This document shows, piece by piece, positions 1-13,709 of a DNA stretch of 13,709 nt. The stretch comes from Planctomycetota bacterium. Its GTDB lineage: Bacteria; Planctomycetota; JADGBV01. The translations under genes and the position numbers were made by a program. The stretch is from contig JADGBV010000063.1 of assembly GCA_015231345.1 (NCBI GenBank), positions 1 through 13,709 of the forward strand, read 5' to 3'. Below the pieces are notes generated by a model. That model was not told where the DNA came from, made no database searches, and saw nothing but the letters and a program-made list of their open reading frames with translations. Each line of letters begins with the position of its first letter. The first letter of the stretch is position 1.

Positions 1-2
1 CA

Positions 3-551
3 ACTGTTCTGTATTGGCTTGTCGTCATTATGGGAGCCATAGACATTGACGGCTTAGATATCGATATTGACCTTGATGGCTTGGATGGGATCTCAGGAAC
101 ATTGCTTTCCTTCGTTTATATCAAAGAGCTCCCCTTCACTATTTTCATTTCATGCTGGTCAGCCATATGCTGGTTTTTTGCCATGACATTTACTTATTAT
201 ATTAATCCAGAAAGATCTTTATTTTTGGGTTTATGCGCCCTCCCCGTTATTGTCATTATTGGCATCATTGCTTCACGTTTCATTCTTTACCCCATTCGTC
301 ATTTCTTCGCTAGCTTAAAAGGCGATGAGCATGAAAAGGACAATAATCTCATTGGCAGAATTGCTTCGGTGGAAACTACAACAATCAATTCTACTTTTGG
401 CCGAGTTCAGGTCGAATCAACATCTAGTCCTATTCTTGTCGGCGCAGTCTGCGAAGATGGAACCACTTTAAATAGAGGTGATAAAGTGGTTATCATCGAA
501 TACCAAGAAGATAAAGATAAATTTTTAGTTTCACCTTTTAACGAAAATTAA
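3..551 (+). CDS. NfeD/YqiJ-like inner-membrane protein, flotillin-associated, probably 5'-truncated by the window edge
   Basis: The reading frame stays open from position 3 to the window start, and the ATG at 30 has no SD upstream, so it is likely an internal Met. The translated stretch before it (TVLYWLVVI) looks like the end of a TM helix. There are two hydrophobic TM-like segments (FTIFISCWSAICWFFAMTFTYYI and FLGLCALPVIVIIGIIASRFILYPI). A soluble C-terminal tail (GRIASVE...GRVQVES...GDKVVII) resembles the OB-fold beta-barrel of NfeD proteins. The gene lies 29 bp upstream of a flotillin gene, the classic NfeD-SPFH pairing (yqiJ-yqiK, yuaF-floT). Confidence 0.7.
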   Translation, partial: TVLYWLVVIMGAIDIDGLDIDIDLDGLDGISGTLLSFVYIKELPFTIFISCWSAICWFFAMTFTYYINPERSLFLGLCALPVIVIIGIIASRFILYPIRHFFASLKGDEHEKDNNLIGRIASVETTTINSTFGRVQVESTSSPILVGAVCEDGTTLNRGDKVVIIEYQEDKDKFLVSPFNEN

Positions 552-569
552 GTTTTTTACTCATCATTT

Positions 570-575
570 AAGGAG
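570..575 (+). promoter_or_regulatory. Shine-Dalgarno AAGGAG for the flotillin gene, 5-nt spacer to ATG 581
   Basis: A consensus AAGGAG is read directly from the sequence at the optimal distance from the ATG. Confidence 0.7.
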
Positions 576-580
576 CATAT

Positions 581-2632
581 ATGGATATTCAATTATCCTT
601 AGGGATTCTTGTAGCAATCGGTTTTATCGTATTTATCGGTTTGCTACTCTTCATTTCAAAATGTTATAGAAAAGTTTTACCTGGAACGGCCATGATCCGT
701 AACGGATGGGCTGGGACTCAAGTCTCTTTCACGGGAAAAATTGTATTACCCATTCTTCACAAATTTCAAGTGATGGATATTTCCGTTAAACGTGTAGAAA
801 TCGAAAGAAGTGCCGGAGATGGCCTCATATGTAAAGACAACCTACGAGCTGATATCAAAGTTGTCTTCTTTGTTCGTGTCAACAAAACAGAAAATGATGT
901 TTTGAGAGTTGCAGATATGATTGGTGTCACTCGTGCGAGCACTCGAGAAGCCCTCAATGAACTCTTCGATGCTAAATTTAGTGAATCACTTAAAACTGTC
1001 GGTAAACTCTTTGAGTTTGAACAACTCTATAATGCCCGTCGAGAATTCAAAGAACAAATTGTAGAGCTTATTGGCACTGATCTGAACGGCTATACCTTAG
1101 AAGATGCTTCTATCGATTACTTGGAGCAGACTGATATTCATAGCCTAAAAGACGACAATATTTTAGATTCACAGGGGATCAAGAAGATCACTGAACTCAC
1201 AGCCATTCAACGCATCAAATCCAATCAAATTAGAAATGATGAACGCAAAACAATCACACAGCAGGATGTGGACGCCCGTGAAGCCATTTTAGAAATGGAG
1301 AGACAAAAAGCTGAATCCGAAGAACGCCAACGTCGTGAAGTCGCCAATATTAAGTCACGCGAATCTTCAGATATTGCACGTGTTCAACAAGAAGAGAGAC
1401 AGAAAGCCGAACAGGCTCGTATTATAGCCGAAGAAGAAATTCTCGTTGCCGAAGAAAATAAAATGCGCCAAATCATTGTGGCACAAAAGAACAAAGAACG
1501 CACTGAGGCTATTGAGTCTGAACGAATCGAAAAAGACCGCATGCTGGAAGCAACCGAAAGAGAAAAAACAGTTTCCCTGGCAACCATCGAAAAAGAAAAA
1601 GCTTTGGAAATAGAAAAACGAAATATTCAAGATACCATCAGAGAACGAATCATGGTCGAAAAATCTGTGGTTGAAGAAGAAGAACGAATCAAAGATACTC
1701 GCGAGTTAGCCGAAGCCGAGCGAGCCAAAGCTGTTACACTCACTGAAGCAGAACGTGACGCAGAAGAAGAAGCTCTAAAAAGAACCAAGGAAGCTGAGGT
1801 GGCCAAGAAAGCTGCTGAACTCAAAGCTGAACAAGATCTTGTCACCCACGTAAAAGCAGCTGAAGCCGAAAGGAAAGCTGCCGAACTTCAAGCTGAACAG
1901 AGAGTCATTGAAGCAGAAAGCCTTCAAAGTGCAGCCATCAAAAAAGCTGAAGCCAAGAAAGTTATGGCTGATGCAACGGCTGCGGAAGAAGCTGCATCTG
2001 GCCTAGCAGAAGCACAAGTCATTTCTGTTAAGTCAGACGCACTTAAAAAGCAAGGAGAAGTAGAGGCCGATATTATGCTACGTAAGTCCACGGCTGAAGC
2101 AGAAGGCATCTCGAAGAAAGCAAGCTCCATGAAAGAGCTAGATGGCGTAGGTAAAGAGCATGAAGAATTCAAACTTCGTCTCAATAAAGACAGAGACTTA
2201 CAACTCGCATCTATCAATATGAACAAAGATGTGGCCATCGCCCAATCTAGTATCGTCGCCGAAGCCCTTAAAACTGCCAACATAGACATCGTTGGAGGAG
2301 AAACTCAATTTTTCAATAATGTTATTGGTGCCATTACAGAAGCACGTTCCGTCGACCGCCTAGTCAAAGGGTCTGAAGTTCTCTCAGAGGTCAAAGACAC
2401 ATTCTTCCAAGGCAATGACCCAGAATTCTTCAAAACGCAGTTGAGATCATTCATCGACAATATGGGAGTATCCATTGATGACATGAAGAACATTCAACTA
2501 TCAACTCTCTTTTCAAGGCTTTCTAGTCAAATGAAAGACGATAAATCTACGAGCAAACTCAACTCTCTCAAAGAGGTCGCTGGAAAAGCTGGTCTGCTTA
2601 GTGAAAAAATCAGTTCACTCTTGGGAGTGTAA
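581..2632 (+). CDS. Flotillin-like SPFH/band-7 domain protein (YqiK/FloT family) with extended charged coiled-coil region
   Basis: An N-terminal TM anchor (LSLGILVAIGFIVFIGLLLFIS) is followed by an SPFH-like core (MIRNGWAGTQVSFTGKIVLPILHKFQVMDISVKRVEIE...DNLRADIKVVFFVRV) that matches flotillin/YqiK N-terminal conservation. Amino acids ~235-480 form a very long E/R/K/A/Q-rich heptad-like stretch typical of the flotillin domain. The gene has a strong SD and sits immediately downstream of an NfeD-like gene. Confidence 0.9.
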   Translation: MDIQLSLGILVAIGFIVFIGLLLFISKCYRKVLPGTAMIRNGWAGTQVSFTGKIVLPILHKFQVMDISVKRVEIERSAGDGLICKDNLRADIKVVFFVRVNKTENDVLRVADMIGVTRASTREALNELFDAKFSESLKTVGKLFEFEQLYNARREFKEQIVELIGTDLNGYTLEDASIDYLEQTDIHSLKDDNILDSQGIKKITELTAIQRIKSNQIRNDERKTITQQDVDAREAILEMERQKAESEERQRREVANIKSRESSDIARVQQEERQKAEQARIIAEEEILVAEENKMRQIIVAQKNKERTEAIESERIEKDRMLEATEREKTVSLATIEKEKALEIEKRNIQDTIRERIMVEKSVVEEEERIKDTRELAEAERAKAVTLTEAERDAEEEALKRTKEAEVAKKAAELKAEQDLVTHVKAAEAERKAAELQAEQRVIEAESLQSAAIKKAEAKKVMADATAAEEAASGLAEAQVISVKSDALKKQGEVEADIMLRKSTAEAEGISKKASSMKELDGVGKEHEEFKLRLNKDRDLQLASINMNKDVAIAQSSIVAEALKTANIDIVGGETQFFNNVIGAITEARSVDRLVKGSEVLSEVKDTFFQGNDPEFFKTQLRSFIDNMGVSIDDMKNIQLSTLFSRLSSQMKDDKSTSKLNSLKEVAGKAGLLSEKISSLLGV

Positions 2633-2665
2633 TTAAACACTAAGATCCAACTCTTTATTATCAAT

Positions 2666-2697
2666 GTGCGGGGTTAGAGGAAGTTCCTCTCCCGCAC
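2666..2697 (+). promoter_or_regulatory. Intercistronic GC-rich RNA hairpin (13 bp stem with 3-nt bulge, triloop) between flotillin and giant ATPase genes; no U-tract
   Basis: GTGCGGG(2666-2672) pairs with CCCGCAC(2691-2697), and AGAGGA(2676-2681) pairs with TCCTCT(2685-2690), leaving loop AGT. The downstream sequence tcactcagtaatacgg has no T-run, so this is not a canonical intrinsic terminator. Confidence 0.4.
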
Positions 2698-2724
2698 TCA
2701 CTCAGTAATACGGAAATAGACTAA

Positions 2725-5700
2725 ATGGCTGAAGAAAATAGCACATCTCAATTAGAAGGCGGTAGTTACGAAATCCTCAAAAATCGCCTTAATAATGCCT
2801 CTGGCGATCTCAATACGCGCATCGAGAATTTAAATCAGAGGCGCAAGAAACTCTTTGGAGCGATTGAATTTGAGCTTGCCAACACAGGGCGAGTCACAAC
2901 GAAGCATAACTGCACACCTAGGGATATGGTGCCCATCAACTCCCATTTTATCTTCGGCTATAATGTGCACATAGGCCTCAAAACCACAACTGAACTTGAG
3001 GATGTTTTCGGTGTTTATCGTTATGAAAATGATTCTTTTCATGAAGAGTCCCTTGAGTTACTAGGCAACGAAAAATTCCTCAAAGACTTTGCCGATTTAT
3101 ATAAATTCTACCGTCACACCACCTTCTCTCGCTTTGCCATACGTGGCCCTCACCTCTTCATGATTTTTCGAACCGGAAAGAAAGCAGAAGACATCAAAGC
3201 TTTTAAATGGCTCATCTCGGAAGATAAATTAAGCTACATAGGTAACCGTAGTGAAAACGAATATTCATTCCCTGACCAGCATACATTCCAGTGGGAAAGA
3301 ACGGGGCGTGACGACCAGCGAGGTGGCGCATTCCCTCATATATCCATTAAGGACAAAATATTTGTAGAAACAGTCGGGGGTGACCTTACCATAAAAATTG
3401 AAGACAACACAGATTCTGGTCAAGGCATCTATGCCGAGCCCGTAGAATATGAAGATCAAACTCTTGATGATGCTGAAATATACTTCGCAACAATTGGCAC
3501 GATCATCTTATTAAAAATACGGCCCTACCAAGAAAAGGACTACCGCTATATTGCCTATTGCGAGAAAGTATCCCAAGCCTGGAGAATCGACAGCCTAGAA
3601 GAGTCGTGCATTCTTCTCCCTGAAGATCAAGGAATCGTCTTCCCTGGTGGCTGTCTCTTACAAAGCGGAGCCATCAAAACTTTCGAACATTCCACTGATG
3701 GCATGCGCCTCGATGAATGCATCCGTTCACCCAATGGTGAAGATTACCTATATGTCTATTACGAATATCAGCAAGGAAACTACCTACTGCTACCCTATAA
3801 TATCGTAGACCAACAAATGGATTCTCCCATCAACTGCCATGGTTTCTCATTATTTGATGATGGTAAGTTGGCACTATTCTCCAGCGAAGACAGACCTGGG
3901 AAACAACATATTCTGCAACTTTGGCAAACTCCATTTACCGCCAAAGAAAGAGATGTCACCTTAGATAGCCAAGATAACAGCGACATCTACTTAAGTAAAT
4001 TAGGCAATAAAGACATCGTAAAAACTCTTGCTGAATGCAAAGAAATCATCTTACTCGCTGCCAAAGATGAGTCTTATATGGGACTCTATCATGAAATTGC
4101 ACAAAACGCTGAGCGCTTACTTGAGCATTGCTTTTGGTTAGAGAGAGAAGAAGTCGGAAAAATCAATGAACCTCTGATTGCCATTCGTGAGGTTGCTCTC
4201 GCAGCCATGGATGAATACGAGAAAGTTCGCCAAGTTAAAGAACAAACCAAGCAAAGTTTCAAAAACGTTGAAAACGAACTTAAACTTCTCTGTGCTGAAG
4301 TTGACTCAGCAGCTTATACGCAACTAGAAGATTACGTCAGTAAATTATCACAGTTAAGGACATTCAAAGGGTCTGTCATTGTACTGAAAGATTTAAAGTA
4401 TGCTGACATCGAAAAAGTCACACAGTTTGAAGAAAAACTCAACGAAAGATCAAGCCGACTTTCAAACGGTTGTATTAATCTCCTTCAAGAAGACTCTGCC
4501 CTAGCCATATATGAAGAACAAATTAAAGGTTTAGAAGAGCAAGTCTCGCAAATCACATCAAGTAGCCAAGCCAAAGAACTTGAAGATCAACTCAAAGGCA
4601 ATGCCGAAAACCTTGAACTCTTAACTGAGTTAGTGGGTAGCCTCAAAATAGACGATCCAAATCAGTCGACTATCATAATGGAAAAACTCTCAGCCATCTT
4701 TGCTTTACTTAATCAAGTTAAAGCACACCTTAAAAATCGTTATGATGAAATAGGTCAAAAGGAAGGCGAAGCAGAATTCGCTGCTCAAATGAACCTCATT
4801 GACCAAAGCCTATCATCAGCCATAGAACGAGCCGACTCCCCAGAGAAATGTGATGAATCATTATCTCGAACGATGGTCAAACTAGAAGAATTAGAAGGTC
4901 GTTTTGGCGACTTTGATGTTTTCATAGAGAAACTAGCAGATAAACGCGATGCCATCTACAGTGCCTTCGAATCACGAAAATTAATTCTACAGGAAAAAAG
5001 ACAAAAAAAGATTCAGGCCCTCACGTCAGCCTCAGAAAGAATCCTGACCAGCGTACAATCCCGCTTAAGCCGATCCGAAAATATAGAAGCAATCCATAGC
5101 ACATTCTCAGCTGATATCATGGTGGATAAAGCTCGAGACCTCGCCGAGCAACTACGAGCTCTAGGGAATGTTGTTAAAGCCGATGAAATCGAAGGAAAAC
5201 TGAAAAGCTCTAAAGAACAAGCCATACGTCACCTTAGAGACCAACTTGAGCTTTCTGGAGAAGGAGAAGACTCTATTCGCCTGGGCCGCCATTCATTCAG
5301 CGTCAACCGGCAAGCTCTAGAGTTGAGTTTAGTGATGCATAACGATCACCCACACTTTCACCTTTCTGGGACTGACTATTTCGAGAAGGTCCAACACGAA
5401 GAACTGGAAGCCACAAGAGCCGTCTGGAGTCAAGAGATCGTTTCAGAAAACCAGCACGTTTACCGAGCTGAATACTTAGCCTACCAATTCACCAAAGACT
5501 ACCAAAACAACGACACAGCAATCCACGATTTAGCAGAAGAGACTCTAAGCGAAGAAATCGCCAAGTATATCTCTTCCCGTCATGATGAAGGCTATGTCAA
5601 AGGTGTCCACGATAAAGATGCTGCACTCATAAGTCAATCTTACTCTCGCATTAAACACAAACTCGGCCCTCTTTCGGGCACTCCTTCAGAGCGTGCCTTA

Positions 5701-7881
5701 GCCAGGGTGTGGCTAGCAGCAAATAAGGGCAGCACAAACTATAAGAAAATTCAAGAAACATCTTTAAGCTACCATAAACTCCAAGCCACCTACCCCGGTA
5801 GTGAAGGCGGGCAAAATTTAAGAAAAAGATTACAAGCCGATTTACAGCATTACTTAGAAAATCTTGATCTATTCAGTCACCTAGAAATACCTGGAGCAAG
5901 CGAATACATCATATACCTTCTAGGCAGTGGAGGCAAAGAGCACATGACCTTAGAAACTCAGAGATTACTAAAAAATCTCGTGCGCCAAATAGACCTTAAG
6001 GGAGAATTTAAAATCCCCATTCAAAGCAATCCAGAAATAGCCTACCCAGCCATCAAAGATTGGGCACGAGCTTTGGTCATCAGTGAATATGGCAAAGTCC
6101 CTGCAGGAGGTGTCATCGAAGAAATTGCCTCCTTAGCTTTAAGTGGTCAACACGATAACGCAAAAACACTAGATACCAAAACATCTTTGCTCATTGAAGG
6201 CATGAGAGGCGCACATACTCGTTTAAAAGAGAGCAGTCTTACCTTTGAGTACTCCAATTTCATTCAACGTATGCATCTCTTTACTCAAGAAACTGTTCCT
6301 GCATATCGGAGCTATGAGTTAGCGAAAAAGAATGTTCTCAATAGCAAACGTTCCCAACTGCGCCTTGATGAATTCAAACCCAGAATCCTCAGCTCATTTG
6401 TGCGTAATCGTCTTATCGACGAAGTTTATTTGCCCATTATTGGCGATAACCTCGCTAAACAAATGGGAAGCCTCGGCGCTACCAAACGCACTGACCTCAT
6501 GGGACTCCTGCTCCTTATATCTCCACCAGGTTATGGAAAAACGACCCTGATGGAATATGTCGCTGACCGATTAGGCTTAACTTTCGTTAAAATTAACGGC
6601 CCAGCCATCGGGCACCGAGTGCTTAGCCTTGACCCTGCAGAGGCCCCCAATGCAAGTTCACGAGAAGAGATTAACAAATTAAATTTAAGTTTGGAGATGG
6701 GTAATAATGTCATGATCTACCTTGATGATATCCAACATGTCAACCCAGAATTTTTGCAAAAATTCATCTCTCTTTGCGATGGCCAGCGCCGCATTGAAGG
6801 TGTATATCAAGGTAAACCCAGAACCTATGACCTCCGTGGCAAGAAAGTAGCCGTTGTTATGGCAGGGAATCCCTATACAGAAAGCGGAACTCGCTTTCAA
6901 GTTCCAGATATGCTATCCAATCGTGCCGACACTTATAACCTAGGGGATATTCTCAGTGGGCACGGCAATGCTTTTGAAGTCAGCTACTTAGAGAATGCAC
7001 TCACCTCCTCTCCTTTTCTTTCTCCTTTGGGACAACGCTCCAGAAAAGATATTCACGCCTTTATCAAAGCAGCTGAAACTGATTCAACAGAGCATATGGA
7101 GCTGGAAGGAAGCTACAGCAATCAAGAAATGCAAGAAATCCTGAGTGTCTTAAAGCACCTTCTGGTGATTCGAGATGTGATTCTTAAGGTCAACCAAAGA
7201 TATATCATATCCGCAGGCCAAGATGACCGTGACCGCACAGAGCCTCCTTTTAAATTGCAGGGCTCTTACCGTAACATGAATCGCATGGTAGAAAAGGTAC
7301 AAGCCATCATGAATGAAACAGAAGTGCGCAATATTATTTTGGATCATTACGTAAACGAATCACAAACCCTCACAGCTGGAGCAGAAGCCAATATATTAAG
7401 CTTCAAGGCTCTCATGAACTGGCTTGACGATAATGAAAAGCAACGCTATGAGCATGTACTTGATTCCTTTCGCCAACAAACGAATATGCTGAATATTGAC
7501 GATAACGACCCTCTAGCACCTGTTCTTGCCCAACTTAGTACTCTTAATGGCACCATCTCATCCATAGGCAAGAATCTCACTCTTCCTCAAGATAAACAAG
7601 ATATTTCCTTCGACGTTGAGGCTTTCAGTCAAGCTCTTCAAGAAAGCCTAAGTCCACTCAAGAATCAAGAAATAAAAGTGGTCAATAAAATCCCATCAGT
7701 TGTCACAGGTGTCTTGAAGAATCAATTAAAGCTTATTGAAAATTGGATGAAACCCTTACTCAAAGCTCAACTCACACAATCCAAAGACCTGGGCGAACTT
7801 CGCGATTCACTTGCGACGACTCATAGAAGCTATATGGATCTAGTTAGTTCCATTAACACTAAAGACAAAAAAACAAAATAG
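2725..7881 (+). CDS. Giant (1718 aa) multidomain protein: N-terminal ~420-aa unclassified domain, long central coiled-coil/alpha-helical region, C-terminal MoxR/AAA_5-type AAA+ ATPase module and ~300-aa C-terminal helical tail
   Basis: A single uninterrupted 5.16-kb ORF in the same orientation as the upstream genes. Walker A is PPGYGKTT at 6523-6546 and Walker B is IYLDD at 6715-6729. The MoxR/AAA_5 signature VAVVMAGNPYTESGTRFQVPDMLSNRADTY aligns by eye to [22 protein letters not shown]. I see no hydrophobic TM segments. A heptad-like charged region spans aa ~430-1000. Confidence 0.9.
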   Translation: MAEENSTSQLEGGSYEILKNRLNNASGDLNTRIENLNQRRKKLFGAIEFELANTGRVTTKHNCTPRDMVPINSHFIFGYNVHIGLKTTTELEDVFGVYRYENDSFHEESLELLGNEKFLKDFADLYKFYRHTTFSRFAIRGPHLFMIFRTGKKAEDIKAFKWLISEDKLSYIGNRSENEYSFPDQHTFQWERTGRDDQRGGAFPHISIKDKIFVETVGGDLTIKIEDNTDSGQGIYAEPVEYEDQTLDDAEIYFATIGTIILLKIRPYQEKDYRYIAYCEKVSQAWRIDSLEESCILLPEDQGIVFPGGCLLQSGAIKTFEHSTDGMRLDECIRSPNGEDYLYVYYEYQQGNYLLLPYNIVDQQMDSPINCHGFSLFDDGKLALFSSEDRPGKQHILQLWQTPFTAKERDVTLDSQDNSDIYLSKLGNKDIVKTLAECKEIILLAAKDESYMGLYHEIAQNAERLLEHCFWLEREEVGKINEPLIAIREVALAAMDEYEKVRQVKEQTKQSFKNVENELKLLCAEVDSAAYTQLEDYVSKLSQLRTFKGSVIVLKDLKYADIEKVTQFEEKLNERSSRLSNGCINLLQEDSALAIYEEQIKGLEEQVSQITSSSQAKELEDQLKGNAENLELLTELVGSLKIDDPNQSTIIMEKLSAIFALLNQVKAHLKNRYDEIGQKEGEAEFAAQMNLIDQSLSSAIERADSPEKCDESLSRTMVKLEELEGRFGDFDVFIEKLADKRDAIYSAFESRKLILQEKRQKKIQALTSASERILTSVQSRLSRSENIEAIHSTFSADIMVDKARDLAEQLRALGNVVKADEIEGKLKSSKEQAIRHLRDQLELSGEGEDSIRLGRHSFSVNRQALELSLVMHNDHPHFHLSGTDYFEKVQHEELEATRAVWSQEIVSENQHVYRAEYLAYQFTKDYQNNDTAIHDLAEETLSEEIAKYISSRHDEGYVKGVHDKDAALISQSYSRIKHKLGPLSGTPSERALARVWLAANKGSTNYKKIQETSLSYHKLQATYPGSEGGQNLRKRLQADLQHYLENLDLFSHLEIPGASEYIIYLLGSGGKEHMTLETQRLLKNLVRQIDLKGEFKIPIQSNPEIAYPAIKDWARALVISEYGKVPAGGVIEEIASLALSGQHDNAKTLDTKTSLLIEGMRGAHTRLKESSLTFEYSNFIQRMHLFTQETVPAYRSYELAKKNVLNSKRSQLRLDEFKPRILSSFVRNRLIDEVYLPIIGDNLAKQMGSLGATKRTDLMGLLLLISPPGYGKTTLMEYVADRLGLTFVKINGPAIGHRVLSLDPAEAPNASSREEINKLNLSLEMGNNVMIYLDDIQHVNPEFLQKFISLCDGQRRIEGVYQGKPRTYDLRGKKVAVVMAGNPYTESGTRFQVPDMLSNRADTYNLGDILSGHGNAFEVSYLENALTSSPFLSPLGQRSRKDIHAFIKAAETDSTEHMELEGSYSNQEMQEILSVLKHLLVIRDVILKVNQRYIISAGQDDRDRTEPPFKLQGSYRNMNRMVEKVQAIMNETEVRNIILDHYVNESQTLTAGAEANILSFKALMNWLDDNEKQRYEHVLDSFRQQTNMLNIDDNDPLAPVLAQLSTLNGTISSIGKNLTLPQDKQDISFDVEAFSQALQESLSPLKNQEIKVVNKIPSVVTGVLKNQLKLIENWMKPLLKAQLTQSKDLGELRDSLATTHRSYMDLVSSINTKDKKTK
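6442..6984 (+). other. AAA+ (MoxR/AAA_5-like) ATPase module inside the giant ORF (approximate domain bounds)
   Basis: P-loop GYGKTT, Walker B hhhhDD (LDDIQH; the second acidic residue is Asp rather than the usual Glu), and the sensor/arginine region NPxxExGTxxxxPDxxxxR, all read from the translation. Confidence 0.7.
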
Positions 7882-7903
7882 CTTATGAGTGCAATATGAT
7901 AGC

Positions 7904-7960
7904 CCCCATTTAAGCCATGGGGACGTCCATTTCATTCTCCTTTTCTTTTCTCTTTATATC
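7904..7960 (+). terminator. Weak candidate terminator after giant gene: CCCCAT/ATGGGG 6-bp stem (loop TTAAGCC) followed ~10 nt later by a T-rich tract
   Basis: The inverted repeat at 7904-7909 and 7917-7922 is read directly. The T-rich run ttcattctccttttcttttctcttt is not immediately adjacent to the stem, so this is a weak call. Confidence 0.25.
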
Positions 7961-8151
7961 TTTAGCGACTACCGGCGCAGCAACAAGCATGGCGACATTT
8001 ATTAGGAATTTCTTTATTTTGTAATACAAATTATTGAAGCCTGGAAATCTAAAGTGCTGAAAAACAACCATTCACGACGAACACACCACAACTATTCTAA
8101 TCCAGCGACACCTTCTGCCTGCCAATATATGAATCGAAAAATTTAAATTTC

Positions 8152-8179
8152 TTGAATTCGTCTACATTATTGTATATTA
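8152..8179 (+). promoter_or_regulatory. Candidate sigma70-type promoter for LamG gene: TTGAAT(8152-8157)-16 nt-TATATT(8174-8179), with TG immediately upstream of the -10
   Basis: Hexamers read from the sequence. Spacing and position (~50 nt upstream of the start codon) are appropriate. Not verified. Confidence 0.3.
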
Positions 8180-8217
8180 TTCGCTACTAAAGATTGCAGC
8201 TGGCAAAACATCATTTT

Positions 8218-8222
8218 GGAGG
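8218..8222 (+). promoter_or_regulatory. Shine-Dalgarno GGAGG 5 nt upstream of TTG start codon of LamG gene
   Basis: GGAGG-aataa-TTG. The in-frame TAA at 8225-8227 excludes any upstream start. The TTG start is needed to include the signal peptide. Confidence 0.6.
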
Positions 8223-8227
8223 AATAA

Positions 8228-10411
8228 TTGTTTTTCGCAAAGAAATTTCTTGCCATTTATTTAGCTGCGATTCTATGCATATCTCATTGTAGCAAAGCTG
8301 ATATTAAGTCATTATCAGGAACCATCAGCTTAGACTCTAATCTAGACAACAAAACCGAAGCCATCTTAAATTCAACAGGCTTAGGAATAGGAACAACACC
8401 ACAGAGCAACCTCCATATTGCTGGCAATGCCATATTTACGACTTCCTTGTCAATTGGGGACACTTCCATTAGCTCAAGCAACCTAAATGTCTCAGGCACA
8501 CTATCCTATAACATAAATTCAATCACCTCATCACGTACCCTTTCAGGCAATCACTCCACCTATCTAGTCGAGACTGGCGGCACTGGTAACATCGAACTTT
8601 TTATGCCCTCTCCTTCAGCTCATGAGGGAAAAATACTGACATTCAAGAAAACCTATTCCGGAAATACCGTAACATTAAGTCATGTCACTCAACTCGATGG
8701 AATTGGAGATTTAGATCTAGGCGATGGAGCTGTCGTTAGCTTGGTATCAAACGCTAAATACTGGTATATTATAAATATAAATCAAGGGAGCAGTTCTGGA
8801 ACAGCCGAGATTGTACCACCTAAAGCTGACACCCAAATGAGCTTAGGCTTTGACAGTGACCTAGAAGATGAAAGCGCATACGATAATGATGGTAGTTTCT
8901 CAGGCAACACCTATGCTGCTGCAGCCACAACAGGCGTTGTGGGCAAGGGATTAGATTTTGACGGGGTTGATGATTTTATTGAGGTGGATCATTCCAGTTC
9001 ATTAAGTCTAGCAAATGCAGGCTCCATCAGTTTATGGATTAAGCCTTCATCCAACATTGCAAGTCAAGGTACATTATCAGGATTCACAGAGATCACAGCG
9101 CCTCAAGGAACTGGGGTAAATTCACCTGGGCAGGTATCCATGACCTTGGTTGGCAATACGATTAAAATGGCCTCCGCTCAACATGATGATGGGAATGAGA
9201 AGTATCAGTATGGAGGGACTGGAGAAGATTTTAGTGGTTTATCATGGACCGATTTCACAGCATCATCCGGTTCTGGCAAAGGCGAATCGACTTCTATTGC
9301 CATTGATTCCGATGGAGACAAACTGTACTACGCCTCATTTACTCATCAGGGATTAAGCGAATTTGTTCATACAACCAGTTCAAATCTGGACTTTGCAAAT
9401 ATTTCCACTTGGGCTGAAACCTCTAACCCTCCTCCTGATGGAGCTGGGCACAACGATCCCTGCTTTATGGATATGGTTTTAGTCGACACCAAAATGTACA
9501 TTGCACTCTATCTTCATGATGGTGGCATAGAAAAGGCCTATGTCACATCAGTTAATTTAGATGGTAGCGGTGCAAGTTGGCAAGATATCACCTCGACTCT
9601 TGATGGTGGCGGTGGAGCAGAGTACTCCATGCCTGCCATAGATTCAGACGGAGAGAAATTGTACTATGCCTTTTTTGCAAATAATAATGCGGATGAGTAT
9701 TTATACTTCGCCTCTTCAAATTTAGATGGAAGTGACTTTGCATTAACCTCAACGATTACAGCTCCTGATGCTACAAGAAAAGACTCTCCCATATCCATAT
9801 CTATGGTCATTGCTGGCGACACAATTCATTATAGTATTTATGTCGGCAATGCCGATGGAGCGCAACTTTTCACAGCCTATGGTGACAAAGCATACACTAC
9901 TTTTAGCGGCTGGACTGATCAAGGGTATAATTACAACCGAGATCTAGGCATTAAAGTCAGTGCTACAGTTGATATGGTTACTGATGGCAAAGCAATTTCT
10001 ATTCTCACACATTCTTCGAATGTTACCCTTGGTGATAATTTAATGTATGCCACAATTCCTCTTGATGGAGGACCTATCCTTAGTAAAGGGGATGCTTATG
10101 CACTTCATTATACCGGTGGCGGCCTTGTATTTGATTGGGCAGGCTCTCCCAAAAGTTTCGGCAGTCTACCAGCGAATACCTATACTCATGTAGGCATTAC
10201 CTACGATGGAAATGTAATGAATTATTACATCAATGGGTCTCAAGTACGTCGACAGACCGTAACAGCAGACTTCACCCTCACTTCTGACAATCTATTAATT
10301 GGTGGCGATGGGGTATCGAGGTATTTCGATGGTCATTTGGATGAAGTTAAAATATTTGGGCGTGGGCTATCAGCGAGTGAAATGTCCGATTTATATTTAC
10401 TCGGCCAGTAA
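8228..10411 (+). CDS. Secreted LamG (concanavalin A-like lectin/glucanase, Laminin_G_3-type) domain protein with internal DSDG-KLYYA repeats; TTG start
   Basis: Signal peptide MFFAKKFLAIYLAAILCISHCSKA. The LamG_3 N-terminal hallmark GKGLDFDGVDDFIEVDHSSSLSLANAGSISLWIKP lies at aa ~240. The LamG_3 C-terminal hallmark YFDGHLDEVKIFGRGLSASEMSDLY lies at the extreme C-terminus. The two repeated segments are AIDSDGDKLYYASF and AIDSDGEKLYYAFF. Confidence 0.85.
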   Translation: MFFAKKFLAIYLAAILCISHCSKADIKSLSGTISLDSNLDNKTEAILNSTGLGIGTTPQSNLHIAGNAIFTTSLSIGDTSISSSNLNVSGTLSYNINSITSSRTLSGNHSTYLVETGGTGNIELFMPSPSAHEGKILTFKKTYSGNTVTLSHVTQLDGIGDLDLGDGAVVSLVSNAKYWYIININQGSSSGTAEIVPPKADTQMSLGFDSDLEDESAYDNDGSFSGNTYAAAATTGVVGKGLDFDGVDDFIEVDHSSSLSLANAGSISLWIKPSSNIASQGTLSGFTEITAPQGTGVNSPGQVSMTLVGNTIKMASAQHDDGNEKYQYGGTGEDFSGLSWTDFTASSGSGKGESTSIAIDSDGDKLYYASFTHQGLSEFVHTTSSNLDFANISTWAETSNPPPDGAGHNDPCFMDMVLVDTKMYIALYLHDGGIEKAYVTSVNLDGSGASWQDITSTLDGGGGAEYSMPAIDSDGEKLYYAFFANNNADEYLYFASSNLDGSDFALTSTITAPDATRKDSPISISMVIAGDTIHYSIYVGNADGAQLFTAYGDKAYTTFSGWTDQGYNYNRDLGIKVSATVDMVTDGKAISILTHSSNVTLGDNLMYATIPLDGGPILSKGDAYALHYTGGGLVFDWAGSPKSFGSLPANTYTHVGITYDGNVMNYYINGSQVRRQTVTADFTLTSDNLLIGGDGVSRYFDGHLDEVKIFGRGLSASEMSDLYLLGQ

Positions 10412-10510
10412 ATAGTCCCACTTAATCATAAAACCTTGCAGTTAAGGGCTCAAAGCATCTCCTAAATCAATTCCCAGCGACTTGCTTTCCATAAAACTCG
10501 TATCACCCTC

Positions 10511-10540
10511 TTGACATCAATTCGCTTATTTTAATATAAT
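10511..10540 (+). promoter_or_regulatory. Near-consensus sigma70 promoter TTGACA(10511-10516)-18 nt-TATAAT(10535-10540) driving the small secreted-protein gene with a very short leader
   Basis: Both hexamers are perfect consensus, read directly. The predicted TSS is ~10547, only ~9 nt before ATG 10556. Confidence 0.45.
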
Positions 10541-10555
10541 TGAACGGATTTGTCA

Positions 10556-10927
10556 ATGAAAATTATCTTACTTATACTTTTTATCTACTGCACCCTTGGT
10601 ACAGAAATGCTTTGTGCCTACCAAGGCAAGTGGTCATTCGTCAAAGAAGATTTCAAGAAAGTCCACCCTTGGCTGCCAAATTCCCTTATAAATAGGGCAT
10701 TAAGAACTCGTCTTGTTCTTAAAGAAGATAGTTACGCCCAATTTGACCACAATGGCAAATTGATGAAAAGCATCAGAGAACTGAAAGTTTTAAAGAAAAA
10801 GAGTGAAAGTCACTGGCTTTTACAAAGAAAAGAAGGAAATAAGCAGATTGAATTTGAGGTCTATTTTAAGGACTCTAAATGGTTTTACCTAGAAGGCAAG
10901 AAAACCTATCAAATTGAGCAAAAGTAA
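10556..10927 (+). CDS. Small secreted/lipo-protein of unknown function (123 aa from ATG 10556; the ORF track's TTG at 10550 is an alternative start)
   Basis: N-terminal signal-like segment MKIILLILFIYCTLGTEMLCAYQ, with Cys residues near the cleavage region, followed by a lysine-rich soluble domain. The gene has its own strong promoter. I recognise no known domain. Confidence 0.6.
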   Translation: MKIILLILFIYCTLGTEMLCAYQGKWSFVKEDFKKVHPWLPNSLINRALRTRLVLKEDSYAQFDHNGKLMKSIRELKVLKKKSESHWLLQRKEGNKQIEFEVYFKDSKWFYLEGKKTYQIEQK

Positions 10928-10975
10928 CAGATATCTTGCTAATTTATATAGAAAATATGCGCTTCACCCATAGAA

Positions 10976-11137
10976 TCATTCTTCGATTTCGTGTTCCTTT
11001 CTGAATTTCTGAGCAAAATTCATTATCCAATTCACAACAGCCGCTTCACCTAGATCTCGTCCGGCTTTTTCGGACTCAATCCATTTGTATCTTTCGATTT
11101 CACGAATTTGCATGCTGTTGTAATCTTGCAAGGTCAT
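10976..11137 (-). CDS. Unlisted 53-aa minus-strand ORF (MTLQDYNSMQIREIERYKWIESEKAGRDLGEAAVVNWIMNFAQKFRKEHEIEE) with strong SD; small conserved-looking hypothetical protein
   Basis: Manual reverse-complement translation. ATG at 11135-11137 (plus-strand coordinates), stop TGA at 10976-10978. AGGAGAGAGAC lies immediately upstream of the ATG on the minus strand. The ORF fills an otherwise empty 500-bp gap between convergent/divergent genes. It is below the 60-aa cutoff of the supplied track. Confidence 0.45.
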   Translation of the reverse strand: MTLQDYNSMQIREIERYKWIESEKAGRDLGEAAVVNWIMNFAQKFRKEHEIEE

Positions 11138-11193
11138 GTCTCTCTCCTATTTAACTATTATCGACCTTCTCACTCATTTAGAATAGCTAATTC

Positions 11194-11209
11194 TGTGATA
11201 TAACTTACA
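11194..11209. promoter_or_regulatory. CRP-like site TGTGA-tataac-TTACA (one mismatch to TGTGA-N6-TCACA)
   Basis: Read directly. It lies ~60-65 bp upstream of the minus-strand small ORF start, a position compatible with class II-like placement. Confidence 0.3.
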
Positions 11210-11253
11210 CTAGACTTGATAAGCACGGAAATTCAACAATTTCTAGGATACGA

Positions 11254-11269
11254 TGTGAGTTATTTCACA
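11254..11269. promoter_or_regulatory. CRP-like site TGTGA-gttatt-TCACA (perfect match to CRP core consensus half-sites)
   Basis: Read directly. It is flanked by partially palindromic cga/acg. Its centre lies 60 bp from the other CRP-like site, in the divergent region between the small minus-strand ORF and the beta-helix gene. Confidence 0.4.
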
Positions 11270-11376
11270 ACGATACAGCACGTCAAATGAGACACTTTCA
11301 AGTTAAAGCGTTGATGAATTCATTCTATGAGCCTGGTTCCACCCCAGTCTAACAAACAACCTAAAATTAAGTATTC

Positions 11377-11404
11377 TTGATGAAAGAGGCAGTGAATGTA
11401 TCAT
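11377..11404 (+). promoter_or_regulatory. Candidate promoter for beta-helix gene: TTGATG(11377-11382)-16 nt-TATCAT(11399-11404); AAGGA SD at 11423-11427
   Basis: Hexamers and SD read from the sequence. Moderate match only. Confidence 0.25.
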
Positions 11405-11435
11405 GTCAAAAAACTGCTGGGCAAGGACACCTTGA

Positions 11436-13685
11436 ATGAGAAATAACACTAAGCACCTAACTCTAATTATAGCACTTTGCCTTATCCCTTTTAACTTCAT
11501 TGAAGCAAGGGATTATTATGTGAGTCCTAACGGCTCAGACCATAACCCAGGCACCCTCAAACATCCCTTAAAGACATTTTCCGCAGTCACAAAAAAGCTA
11601 AAACCAGGCGATACCTGCATCATTCGCGAAGGCATCTACTCCGAAGTCCTGCGTCCACAATCTTCAGGAGAAGCTAAAAAACCTATAACCTTCACAAACT
11701 ATAAAAATGAGAAAGTAGTACTTACTGGTGCCGATACAATAACTGGCTGGGCAAAGGAGGAAAATGGAATCTACTCAGCGCCAATGCCATGGAGCCTCCC
11801 TGAAGGCAATCAGGTTTTTGCTAATGGCACCATGCTTAGTGAGGCGGTATGGCCTGCGTCCGGTGATGAGCATTTATTCAAACCCATACGGGCAAAAGCC
11901 ACAAAAGGAACTCCAACTACCCTAACATGCCCAGAAATACCCGGAGGAAAAGATTCATGGAAAGAAGCACAGCTGTGGTGTGCAGGAGGAGCAGCTTGGA
12001 TTTGCTGGACAGCATCGGTTACAGGATACGACGACACAACAAAAACGCTGAGTTTCAAGCTAGAAAAATGGAAGAATAAGTGGTATTTTCCTAAGAAAGG
12101 GAACTTATTCTCACTTAGAGGAATCCGGCAAGCACTCAAAGCACCCGGACAGTGGCTCTATGACAACAATAAGAAGCGTTTGCTTCTTATCCCGCCAAAA
12201 GGCACTCCTATAGAATCAATTCATATCGAAGCGAAACGCCGGAAAAATGTAATTGATCTCAAAGGGCGATCTCATATCATCATCTCAGGCTTAGACTTCC
12301 GTTCAGGAGGGCTTCATTCAAATAAAGAATCATCGCACATAACTCTCAAAAACCTTCGTGGAAGGTACCTGTCGCACTCCTATACCAGAAATATGAGTTT
12401 CGAAACAGGAGTCATCATTTCTGGAGATCATTGCCTCGTTCTTAATTGCGACTTCGGCTATGCTTCTGGCTCAGTACTCCATGTACGCGGCAAAAACAAC
12501 CGAGTGATTAATTCCTATCTTCATCATGGCTGTTACTCGGGACTTTTCAGCAGTGGAACGGTATTTCTTTCCGGCACACGCACTCTATTCAGCCACAATA
12601 CTGTACGTCATGCAGGGCGTGATTTAATCAATACCTCCCACTTAATGGAAAGCCTCGTCCAATATAACGATGTCTCCGATGCCGGCTGGTTAACCAAAGA
12701 CCTGGGTATGTTTTATGGTCATAATACAGACTTTGCAGGAACACGATTTTGCTACAACCTAGTGCACGACAATCATGCAGAACATTGTGCTATGGGTATA
12801 TACTTCGACCATCTTAGTCATAATGCCATTTTACATAATAATATCATATGGAATGTAGGAATGGATGCTATTCGTTTTAATAACCCTAGTTATTGCAACC
12901 TCATTTTCAAGAATACCTTTTGGAATACTGGACCACTACGAACCTTCGATCACACCAAAAGAAACGATCTTTTTGCTTGTCGTTTTTCCCAAAATATTTT
13001 TAATGCTAAAACAAATCTCCCCAAGCATGTTAATCTGAGCAATAATCTAGTGAGTCGCACCCCGCCACTTCGCAACCCAGCCAAAGGTGATTTTCGTCTC
13101 ACTGATAATATTCGAGAAAAAGTTGGAGCTCTTGAACCAGGACAAGCCATCTTTAAAGCTGGATGTGATTTTGATAATCCGCCGAAGCCCTTACCAGTGT
13201 ATACAACAAAACGCTTTCCTTGGATGAACGGCATCAAGAATGCATGTTTTGAGTATTCATCACTTGAATACTGGCAAAAGAAAAGAGCTCAAACAGCTAA
13301 ACTGACCAAAGGGAACGGATGGGGAAATGAAAATGGTAGAAAAGCACTTCACCAAACCGGCACCTCTAAACAAGAACTTCGCCTCGGGCCAGAAAATGAT
13401 GAGATTATTCAAGTAGTGAAGAACCTCAGTCCTAATACTCCTTATACATTTTCGGTTTGGTTGAGAGTTTCTTCTAGCGAAGAAAAAGTGCTTGCAACAG
13501 TGCAAGGGCATGGAGGGGCTGCCAAAACAACCTCTTCTAGCTCTGTAGAGTGGGTACGCAAAAGCATTTCATTTACAACCGGACCTCAATCAACGAGAGC
13601 CATCATCTCTCTGATAAAGTCTTCTGGAGGAAAGGGTTATGCATGGTGTGACAATGCAGTATTACCACTAACTCCTGCTAATTGA
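11436..13685 (+). CDS. Secreted right-handed parallel beta-helix (pectate-lyase fold, PbH1 repeats) protein with C-terminal CBM4/9-like carbohydrate-binding module; candidate polysaccharide lyase/glycosidase
   Basis: Signal peptide MRNNTKHLTLIIALCLIPFNFIEA. The N-terminal cap DYYVSPNGSDHNPGTLKHPLKTF...KPGDTCIIREGIY is typical of beta-helix enzymes. Multiple PbH1-like repeats are present (IISGLDFRSGG, VIISGDHCLVLNCDF, NRVINSYLHHG, LFSHNTVRHAG, VQYNDVSDAG, LVHDNHAEH, ILHNNIIWNVG, LIFKNTFWNTG). The C-terminal ~150 aa match the CBM_4_9 pattern (W...NLSPNTPYTFSVWLRVS...VEWVRKSISFTTG...DNAVL). Confidence 0.9.
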   Translation: MRNNTKHLTLIIALCLIPFNFIEARDYYVSPNGSDHNPGTLKHPLKTFSAVTKKLKPGDTCIIREGIYSEVLRPQSSGEAKKPITFTNYKNEKVVLTGADTITGWAKEENGIYSAPMPWSLPEGNQVFANGTMLSEAVWPASGDEHLFKPIRAKATKGTPTTLTCPEIPGGKDSWKEAQLWCAGGAAWICWTASVTGYDDTTKTLSFKLEKWKNKWYFPKKGNLFSLRGIRQALKAPGQWLYDNNKKRLLLIPPKGTPIESIHIEAKRRKNVIDLKGRSHIIISGLDFRSGGLHSNKESSHITLKNLRGRYLSHSYTRNMSFETGVIISGDHCLVLNCDFGYASGSVLHVRGKNNRVINSYLHHGCYSGLFSSGTVFLSGTRTLFSHNTVRHAGRDLINTSHLMESLVQYNDVSDAGWLTKDLGMFYGHNTDFAGTRFCYNLVHDNHAEHCAMGIYFDHLSHNAILHNNIIWNVGMDAIRFNNPSYCNLIFKNTFWNTGPLRTFDHTKRNDLFACRFSQNIFNAKTNLPKHVNLSNNLVSRTPPLRNPAKGDFRLTDNIREKVGALEPGQAIFKAGCDFDNPPKPLPVYTTKRFPWMNGIKNACFEYSSLEYWQKKRAQTAKLTKGNGWGNENGRKALHQTGTSKQELRLGPENDEIIQVVKNLSPNTPYTFSVWLRVSSSEEKVLATVQGHGGAAKTTSSSSVEWVRKSISFTTGPQSTRAIISLIKSSGGKGYAWCDNAVLPLTPAN

Positions 13686-13709
13686 TAATTTCTAGGATCT
13701 ACGCAAGTA

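Follow-up and report, generated by a model that had tools for sequence, protein, structure and literature searches.

We analysed a 13,709-nucleotide stretch of DNA from a Planctomycetota bacterium (assembly GCA_015231345.1, contig JADGBV010000063.1, positions 1 to 13,709; hereafter the window), in which an uninterrupted open reading frame (ORF) encodes a 1718-amino-acid (aa) ATPase as the third gene of a conserved, phylum-spanning yqiJ(NfeD-like)–flotillin–ATPase operon. An identical protein is present in NCBI nr, where it is labelled 'MAG: DNA repair ATPase [Planctomycetes bacterium]'. The ORF is found where a preliminary description, made from the nucleotide sequence, had placed it; its parts and the two genes upstream of it are listed below, with aa numbers referring to the ATPase.

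1..551 (+): opening gene of the operon, encoding a membrane protein of yqiJ/yuaF type (NfeD-like), 5' end cut off by the contig start
581..2632 (+): flotillin-family (YqiK-type SPFH) protein, 683 aa, assigned by hhalign to E. coli YqiK
2725..7881 (+): giant ATPase, 1718 aa, ATG start, member of the DUF3686–DUF7902–AAA family
2806..4131 (+): DUF3686 domain (Pfam PF12458), aa 28–469
4132..5322 (+): charged, helical, partly heptad-periodic stalk, aa ~470–866, containing DUF7902
4498–4746 (+): DUF7902 (Pfam PF25472, E=1.1e-23), aa 592–674
5323..6408 (+): pre-AAA globular domain, aa 867–1228, a small beta-meander followed by ~10 helices in the AlphaFold2 (AF2) model
6409..6954 (+): AAA+ alpha/beta core, aa 1229–1410
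6529–6546 (+): Walker A, GYGKTT, aa 1269–1274
6721–6738 (+): Walker B, LDDIQH, aa 1333–1338, with D1334 and D1335 invariant
aa 1356–1369 (+): pre-sensor-1 beta-hairpin in the AF2 model
6868–6936 (+): sensor 1 (N1382) and candidate arginine finger (R1400), the NP...R block
6955..7494 (+): lid and C-terminal helical domain, aa 1411–1590, helical in the model, with the invariant motif RTEPPFKLQGSYRNMNR and a candidate sensor-2 residue (R1516)
7495..7881 (+): poorly conserved C-terminal tail, aa 1591–1718, and stop codon; consensus largely undefined past ~aa 1600

Domain architecture and family of the giant ATPase

The N-terminal ~420 residues, which the preliminary description had considered beta-rich and impossible to assign, are indeed beta-rich, but they correspond to a catalogued domain, since a Pfam search returned a full-length match to DUF3686 (PF12458; E=9.6e-174, 578.5 bits with a cut-off of 25, profile positions 1–447 of 448, aa 28–469). 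It starts with a long helix, continues with ~28 beta-strands whose arrangement resembles an irregular beta-propeller, and closes with a helical bundle at the C-terminus. The following segment is charged, low in proline and glycine as well as in aromatic residues, and shows a hydrophobic periodicity of 3.5 residues (z=2–4.9 in several 56-aa windows within aa 450–760), features that mark aa ~470–866 as a helical, partly coiled-coil stalk of ~400 aa. A coiled coil of ~500 aa had been proposed for this part of the protein; its charged, partly heptad-periodic character is borne out, whereas its length is not. Residues 867–1228 make up a separate globular domain that had been overlooked. This pre-AAA domain is mostly helical as modelled by AF2, with a predicted local distance difference test score (pLDDT) mostly of 85–97 (87.4 overall for the model of aa 860–1600), and it is conserved, carrying the motifs FSVN.Q, HLTGT, VYR.EYLAY and EGYVKGVHD.DA in invariant columns of the family alignments. 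A search of Pfam for a family match to aa 867–1228 returned noise only.

Hydropathy analysis revealed no transmembrane (TM) segment in the ATPase (maximum Kyte–Doolittle 19-residue mean of 1.37, 0 windows above 1.6), which is a cytoplasmic protein, and Pfam, NCBIfam and PADLOC profile scans yielded no match to VWA, nuclease or protease profiles, both in agreement with the preliminary description. Nothing informative was matched in the ATPase by the NCBIfam and PADLOC scans.

With a full-length DUF3686, a DUF7902 in mid-chain, one AAA+ module near the C-terminus and a chain within the range of ~1600–1900 aa, the ATPase is by its sequence a member of the large, catalogued DUF3686–DUF7902–AAA family, which NCBI names 'DNA repair ATPase'. 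A word-indexed search detected at least 4803 related proteins at E<=1e-10, the best 120 of which are 43–51% identical to the query over 93–100% of its length and are nearly all 1627–1901 aa long; all of these 120 share the same Pfam set, namely DUF3686, DUF7902 and one C-terminal AAA+ module. When DUF3686 alone was searched with HMMER against 1.84 billion cluster representatives, 688 representatives were recovered (242 at E<=1e-30), and in complete proteins the domain always lies at the N-terminus of a 1600–1930-aa chain, shorter matches having the appearance of fragments. Many Bacteroidota and Clostridia homologues stop near the equivalent of aa ~1615–1620, within the poorly conserved tail. 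One 1834-aa homologue carries extra ankyrin-repeat Pfam matches, suggesting the occasional gain of protein-binding modules.

The family is carried by at least 568 species in a scan of one genome per species, among them members of Planctomycetota, Bacteroidota, Verrucomicrobiota, Desulfobacterota, Clostridia, Kiritimatiellota, Omnitrophota and Fibrobacterota; among plasmid and chromosome records, it also occurs in Pseudomonas, Proteus, Vibrio, Photobacterium, Halomonas, Streptomyces, Nonomuraea and Deinococcus.

The AAA+ module and its nearest relatives

The motifs GYGKTT, LDDIQH and NPYTESGTRFQVPDMLSNRADTY, pointed out in the preliminary description, are located at aa 1269–1274, 1333–1338 and 1382–1404, respectively, and are invariant in alignments of 20 and of 78 family members, in which K1272, T1273, D1334, D1335, N1382, R1400, R1504 and R1516 do not vary. 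Because these catalytic residues are invariant across the family, the nucleotide site looks functional, and the Asp-Asp Walker B, also remarked on earlier, is on the same alignments a fixed family trait. In the AF2 model, the Walker A and B motifs, sensor 1 and the candidate arginine-finger and sensor-2 residues occupy their expected positions.

The modelled core runs from beta1 (aa 1261–1265) through Walker A, beta2 (aa 1286–1291) and an 18-residue structured loop to helix alpha2 (aa 1310–1325), continues with beta3 to D1334–D1335, helix alpha3, a beta-hairpin and beta4 to N1382, and ends with a short helix to R1400, beta5 and the lid. The hairpin, with strands at aa 1356–1361 and 1364–1369 between alpha3 and beta4, is a MoxR-type feature, while the loop between beta2 and alpha2 is predicted confidently, with a short helix and no hairpin. 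The nearest structural relatives of the predicted core are the MoxR proteins CbbQ and NorQ, not RuvB; CbbQ was aligned with the model across 242 of its 267 residues, and the lid is therefore part of the match.

Sequence profiles give a more ambiguous picture. Two P-loop NTPase models match the AAA region above their cut-offs: PF00004 (AAA) with 30.8 bits, over profile positions 1–95 of 131 only, and PF07728 (AAA_5) with 25.3 bits (cut-off 22), over positions 2–125 of 139 and below the generic AAA score; AAA_3 has no Pfam match in the ATPase. Alignment of the AAA profile to single E. coli proteins with hhalign gave probabilities of 95.6% for RuvB (39 columns), 92.3% for FtsH, 92.2% for ClpX, 88% for Lon and 18.6% for RavA, values that cover 22–39 columns around Walker A only and cannot assign a clade. 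Sequence searches of the PDB produced P-loop matches only, to p97, VAT and Rix7, and with the family profile the match was limited to the P-loop/beta2 segment of p97. This segment, 'LLLISPPGYGKTTLMEY..LG..F.KINGP' (window 6502..6600, aa ~1260–1292), strikingly resembles p97/VAT D1, whereas the C-terminal half of the core, with its pre-sensor-1 hairpin and NP...R block, is MoxR-like, a mosaic that explains the clashing Pfam labels (AAA, AAA_5, RuvB_N and AAA_22) found among family members. The classical AAA clade (Vps4, p97, FtsH), which is marked by the absence of a pre-sensor-1 hairpin, a second region of homology with two arginines and a full-length PF00004 match, was rejected as a home for the module; the core has a pre-sensor-1 hairpin, and its PF00004 match is partial.

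Our reading, which leans on the predicted three-dimensional structure, is that the AAA+ module has a MoxR/AAA_5-like core, as the preliminary description had proposed. The module is close to CbbQ and NorQ in predicted structure and less clearly placed by sequence profiles, and it is non-canonical in several traits: no helix-2 hairpin is modelled, there is no VWA partner, the Walker B is Asp-Asp, and the module lies within a 1718-aa chain.

Canonical MoxR proteins are ~250–350 aa long and act with a separate VWA-MIDAS partner, as CbbQ does with CbbO and NorQ with NorD. Here, by comparison, the module is embedded in a far longer polypeptide, and a VWA domain was sought in vain both in the ATPase (with Pfam) and among its conserved neighbours in 80 related loci, the sample, taken from ~570+ species-level hits, to which all context counts below refer. 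The Asp-Asp Walker B and the missing helix-2 beta-hairpin of the model also distinguish it from CbbQ and NorQ, and profile similarity to RavA is negligible. Midasin/Rea1 (Mdn1) has six AAA modules per chain and a C-terminal MIDAS domain, whereas the ATPase combines one AAA module with an N-terminal propeller-like domain, and homology is undetectable beyond the AAA core. With a single module per chain, the ATPase would need to oligomerise, and it probably forms a ring. No aromatic pore loop was seen in the AF2 model, which argues against classical substrate threading. The Walker B region of DnaA likewise reads DDIQ, and SF3 helicases use an Asp-Asp pair; by this analogy, the Walker B of the ATPase is compatible with slow, switch-like hydrolysis.

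A conserved operon with a flotillin and a YqiJ-like protein

The reading frame of the yqiJ-like gene is open from base 3 of the window; the ATG listed at base 30 is internal, and 'TVLYWLVVIMGAIDID' upstream of it fits the family consensus. The protein has ~3 TM-like segments, and a profile of its orthologues aligns with E. coli YqiJ over nearly the whole length (hhalign probability 96.4%, E=1.3e-9); Pfam YqiJ_N matches 5 of 18 orthologues, and the match to the NfeD C-terminal domain is weak. In the flotillin, one N-terminal TM-like segment and an SPFH/band-7 domain are followed by a long coiled coil rich in Glu, Ala and Lys, and the C-terminus is a flotillin region. A profile of 22 orthologues aligns with E. 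coli YqiK with a probability of 100% (E=8.5e-40), and the 388 aligned columns take in the SPFH domain. The 683-aa protein itself has no Pfam match even at E<=10, the Band_7 and Flot models included, and PDB profile searches returned no SPFH match, only a weak match to the coiled coil of QmcA (E=4.5e-4). Flotillins of other ATPase loci likewise escape Pfam Band_7 and Flot, and those linked to the ATPase are ~130 aa longer than YqiK. Judged by sequence, they may form a subfamily of their own that databases annotate incompletely.

All three genes of the window operon are on the + strand, with spacers of 29 bp between the yqiJ-like gene and the flotillin and of 92 bp between the flotillin and the ATPase, and across the loci several operon gene pairs overlap by 4–11 bp. 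A flotillin gene lies upstream of the ATPase on the same strand in 71 of the 80 loci and is missing despite at least 7.6 kb of upstream sequence in only four; a yqiJ orthologue directly precedes the flotillin in 60. The co-occurrence with flotillin and NfeD-like genes that the preliminary description had suggested checking is thus the rule. Clustering of neighbouring ORFs detected only three further recurrent families, limited to 17–19 Bacteroidota loci: PspA/IM30, a small protein resembling CesT/YbjN and, transcribed in the opposite direction, a helix-turn-helix (HTH) regulator, in the order HTH(-)|CesT–PspA–YqiJ–flotillin–(variable insert)–ATPase. A conserved fourth gene was sought in the 0.5–2.4 kb flotillin–ATPase gaps of Bacteroidota loci, where the inserts proved variable and none was conserved; in other phyla, the flotillin–ATPase operon is tight. 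The inserts include small TM proteins and lipoproteins as well as DUF559-like and transposase-like ORFs, the latter two identified by eye. Scans for promoters and terminators did no better than chance and carry no information on operon boundaries.

Existing plasmid annotations display the same linkage, with a 'flotillin family protein'–'DNA repair ATPase' pair on a Streptomyces plasmid and a YjfI–PspA–...–SPFH–'DNA repair ATPase' arrangement on pQBR103 of P. fluorescens SBW25. On pQBR103 (NC_009444.1 84452-101870), the SPFH–ATPase pair is part of a longer cluster with YjfI, PspA, a rhomboid protease, DUF2491, DUF350, DUF1190 and a glutathionylspermidine-synthase-family protein, which unites two PspA operon classes kept separate by Ravi et al. 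2024 (PMC11237479).

Ravi et al. 2024 (mSystems, PMC11237479; preprint 2020) described a 'beta-propeller + coiled-coil + AAA-ATPase' protein in a CesT/Tir–PspA–YqiJ/YuaF–band-7/flotillin operon, proposed for it a chaperone-like role in assembling membrane-linked complexes, and reported that an 'abbreviated' operon is widely distributed. Its domain order, with a propeller-like N-terminus, a helical/coiled-coil middle and a C-terminal AAA+ module, is that of the window ATPase, and the Dokdonia donghaensis operon in their Table S3 (around ANH61663.1) has the gene order recovered here. Among the 80 loci, we found the full operon, in Bacteroidota, as well as the abbreviated form, to which the window corresponds; the sequence upstream of yqiJ, where PspA and CesT could lie, is beyond the contig start. 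Nothing essential distinguishes the window copy, from a Planctomycetota metagenome-assembled genome and 43–51% identical to other members, from the published system. The suggestion in the preliminary description of an undescribed family consequently falls, as Pfam, NCBI and Ravi et al. came earlier (PMC11237479), and what is added here is the recognition of the pre-AAA helical domain and of the Asp-Asp Walker B as invariant, together with the structural placement of the AAA+ core near MoxR proteins. Our literature search found no experimental work on any family member and nothing on DUF3686, PF12458 or 'DNA repair ATPase' with flotillin under those names; a preprint on a flotillin-associated rhodopsin was set aside as irrelevant to the ATPase.

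Possible function in scaffold remodelling

Flotillins and PspA are central to bacterial membrane organisation and repair, and no energy-consuming factor is known that assembles or recycles their large oligomers. A highly conserved giant AAA+ protein whose gene is linked to flotillin in more than 10 phyla is an obvious candidate for such a remodeller. In CbbQ/CbbO, NorQ/NorD and midasin, a ring of AAA_5-type modules is coupled to an adaptor that binds the substrate, and protein complexes are remodelled in this way. We favour, with a probability of roughly 0.55, the explanation that the ATPase is a MoxR-like AAA+ remodeller with a fused adaptor, which would use ATP to remodel the flotillin scaffold rather than to repair DNA. 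The separate VWA adaptor of MoxR systems would here be replaced by the N-terminal beta-propeller-like domain, carried on its ~400-residue stalk, and the propeller arms of ATPase oligomers would dock onto the flotillin/YqiJ assembly on its cytoplasmic side and, in certain lineages, onto PspA polymers as well. This docking is proposed because SPFH proteins build large cages or domes, because PspA is recruited in B. subtilis by an SPFH protein, and because MoxR relatives use adaptors. ATP binding, followed by slow, switch-like hydrolysis of the kind with which the invariant Asp-Asp Walker B is consistent, would then drive assembly, opening or disassembly of the scaffold under membrane stress. HflK/C–FtsH, in which an AAA+ enzyme accompanies an SPFH cage, and Vps4–ESCRT-III, in which one accompanies ESCRT-III/PspA-type polymers, offer functional analogies only, the operon having an SPFH protein and, in some lineages, PspA. 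A bolder version, decidedly tentative, would make the family the missing ATP-dependent remodeller of SPFH/flotillin cages and, via them, of PspA/ESCRT-III-like polymers, with a hexameric MoxR-like ring whose six propeller-tipped helical arms grip and open or dismantle the flotillin dome in a slow ATP cycle; if true, this would be a bacterial counterpart of Vps4- or NSF-style scaffold recycling that arose from a different AAA+ clade.

Two alternatives remain within the setting of the membrane, and both suit the operon context but suit the distribution of the family less well. FtsH works within the HflK/C cage, and the ATPase might similarly be a client-directed quality-control motor that leaves the flotillin scaffold itself as it is and extracts, unfolds or matures membrane proteins corralled in a flotillin/YqiJ microdomain; we consider this unlikely, as the protein has no protease domain, TM anchor or aromatic pore loop and is far bigger than would be needed inside a cage, and as the operon holds no client gene, no neighbour being conserved beyond CesT, PspA and the HTH regulator. 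Alternatively, PspA/IM30 polymers, which are ESCRT-III-like, could be the true substrate of a Vps4 analogue for which flotillin and YqiJ are only a membrane platform. That the operon also encodes PspA and a chaperone of CesT/YjfI type in 17–18 Bacteroidota loci and on pQBR103 fits this idea, as does the ESCRT-III/Vps4 parallel that Ravi et al. drew for PspA-associated AAA+ proteins (PMC11237479), and a 2025 review reports no known Vps4-like regulator of bacterial PspA; with its poorer fit to the distribution, we rate it as rather doubtful.

Remodelling of a flotillin scaffold also has to be set against two explanations of another kind. Copies on large plasmids such as pQBR103, and the frequent use of large multi-domain NTPases with propeller sensors by conflict systems, could point to an anti-phage or abortive-infection system that senses membrane perturbation, for which we see a slim chance. 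PADLOC-DB models gave no match at E<=0.01 for the ATPase, the YqiJ-like protein, the flotillin or the neighbouring LamG protein, phage-borne copies of the ATPase were sought and none found, no effector domain (nuclease, protease, TIR etc.) was detected, and the fixed operon composition and mean column identity of 52–57% across phyla in the family alignments are unlike those of diversifying defence loci. Least probable of all, and very improbable in our view, is that the database name is correct and that the protein is a RuvB- or SMC/SbcC-like DNA-repair ATPase. Apart from the NCBI and Pfam names themselves ('DNA repair ATPase', 'ATPase involved in DNA repair'), this explanation can draw on a P-loop that weakly resembles that of RuvB (Pfam RuvB_N E=1.5e-4, 22 bits with a cut-off of 27, and the 39 hhalign columns mentioned above) and on a long helical stalk that superficially resembles SMC or Rad50. 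Yet the NCBIfam RuvB model gives 22.1 bits where its cut-off is 282, nothing beyond the P-loop aligns, the core is by its predicted structure nearest to CbbQ and NorQ, the ATPase showed no motif of DNA-binding, nuclease or ABC type, every conserved neighbour is a membrane-stress protein and none a repair gene, and the literature searched gave no support for the name. 'DNA repair ATPase' is thus probably wrong, a mislabel present in thousands of genome annotations. Nothing in the window goes beyond what is already catalogued; its value lies in a corrected annotation and a sharper hypothesis, which make the family a good experimental target for how bacterial flotillin/PspA scaffolds are remodelled.

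Downstream of the ATPase, the window holds three further genes, which we excluded from the system because they are conserved neighbours of the ATPase in 0 of the 80 loci:

8228..10411: secreted LamG-domain protein (NCBI MBF0197072.1)
10550..10927: 125-aa signal-peptide protein, no matches
11436..13685: secreted beta-helix and CBM_4_9 protein, probably a polysaccharide-active enzyme

Long antisense ORFs inside the flotillin and ATPase genes recur across loci, those in the window lying at 1367..1630 (-) and 1924..2289 (-). They were rejected as genes, since they merely mirror, in low-complexity form, the sequence that codes for the coiled coil rich in Glu, Ala and Lys, and the same coding region shows a strong AT skew of 0.33–0.36 at window positions 1000–2500.

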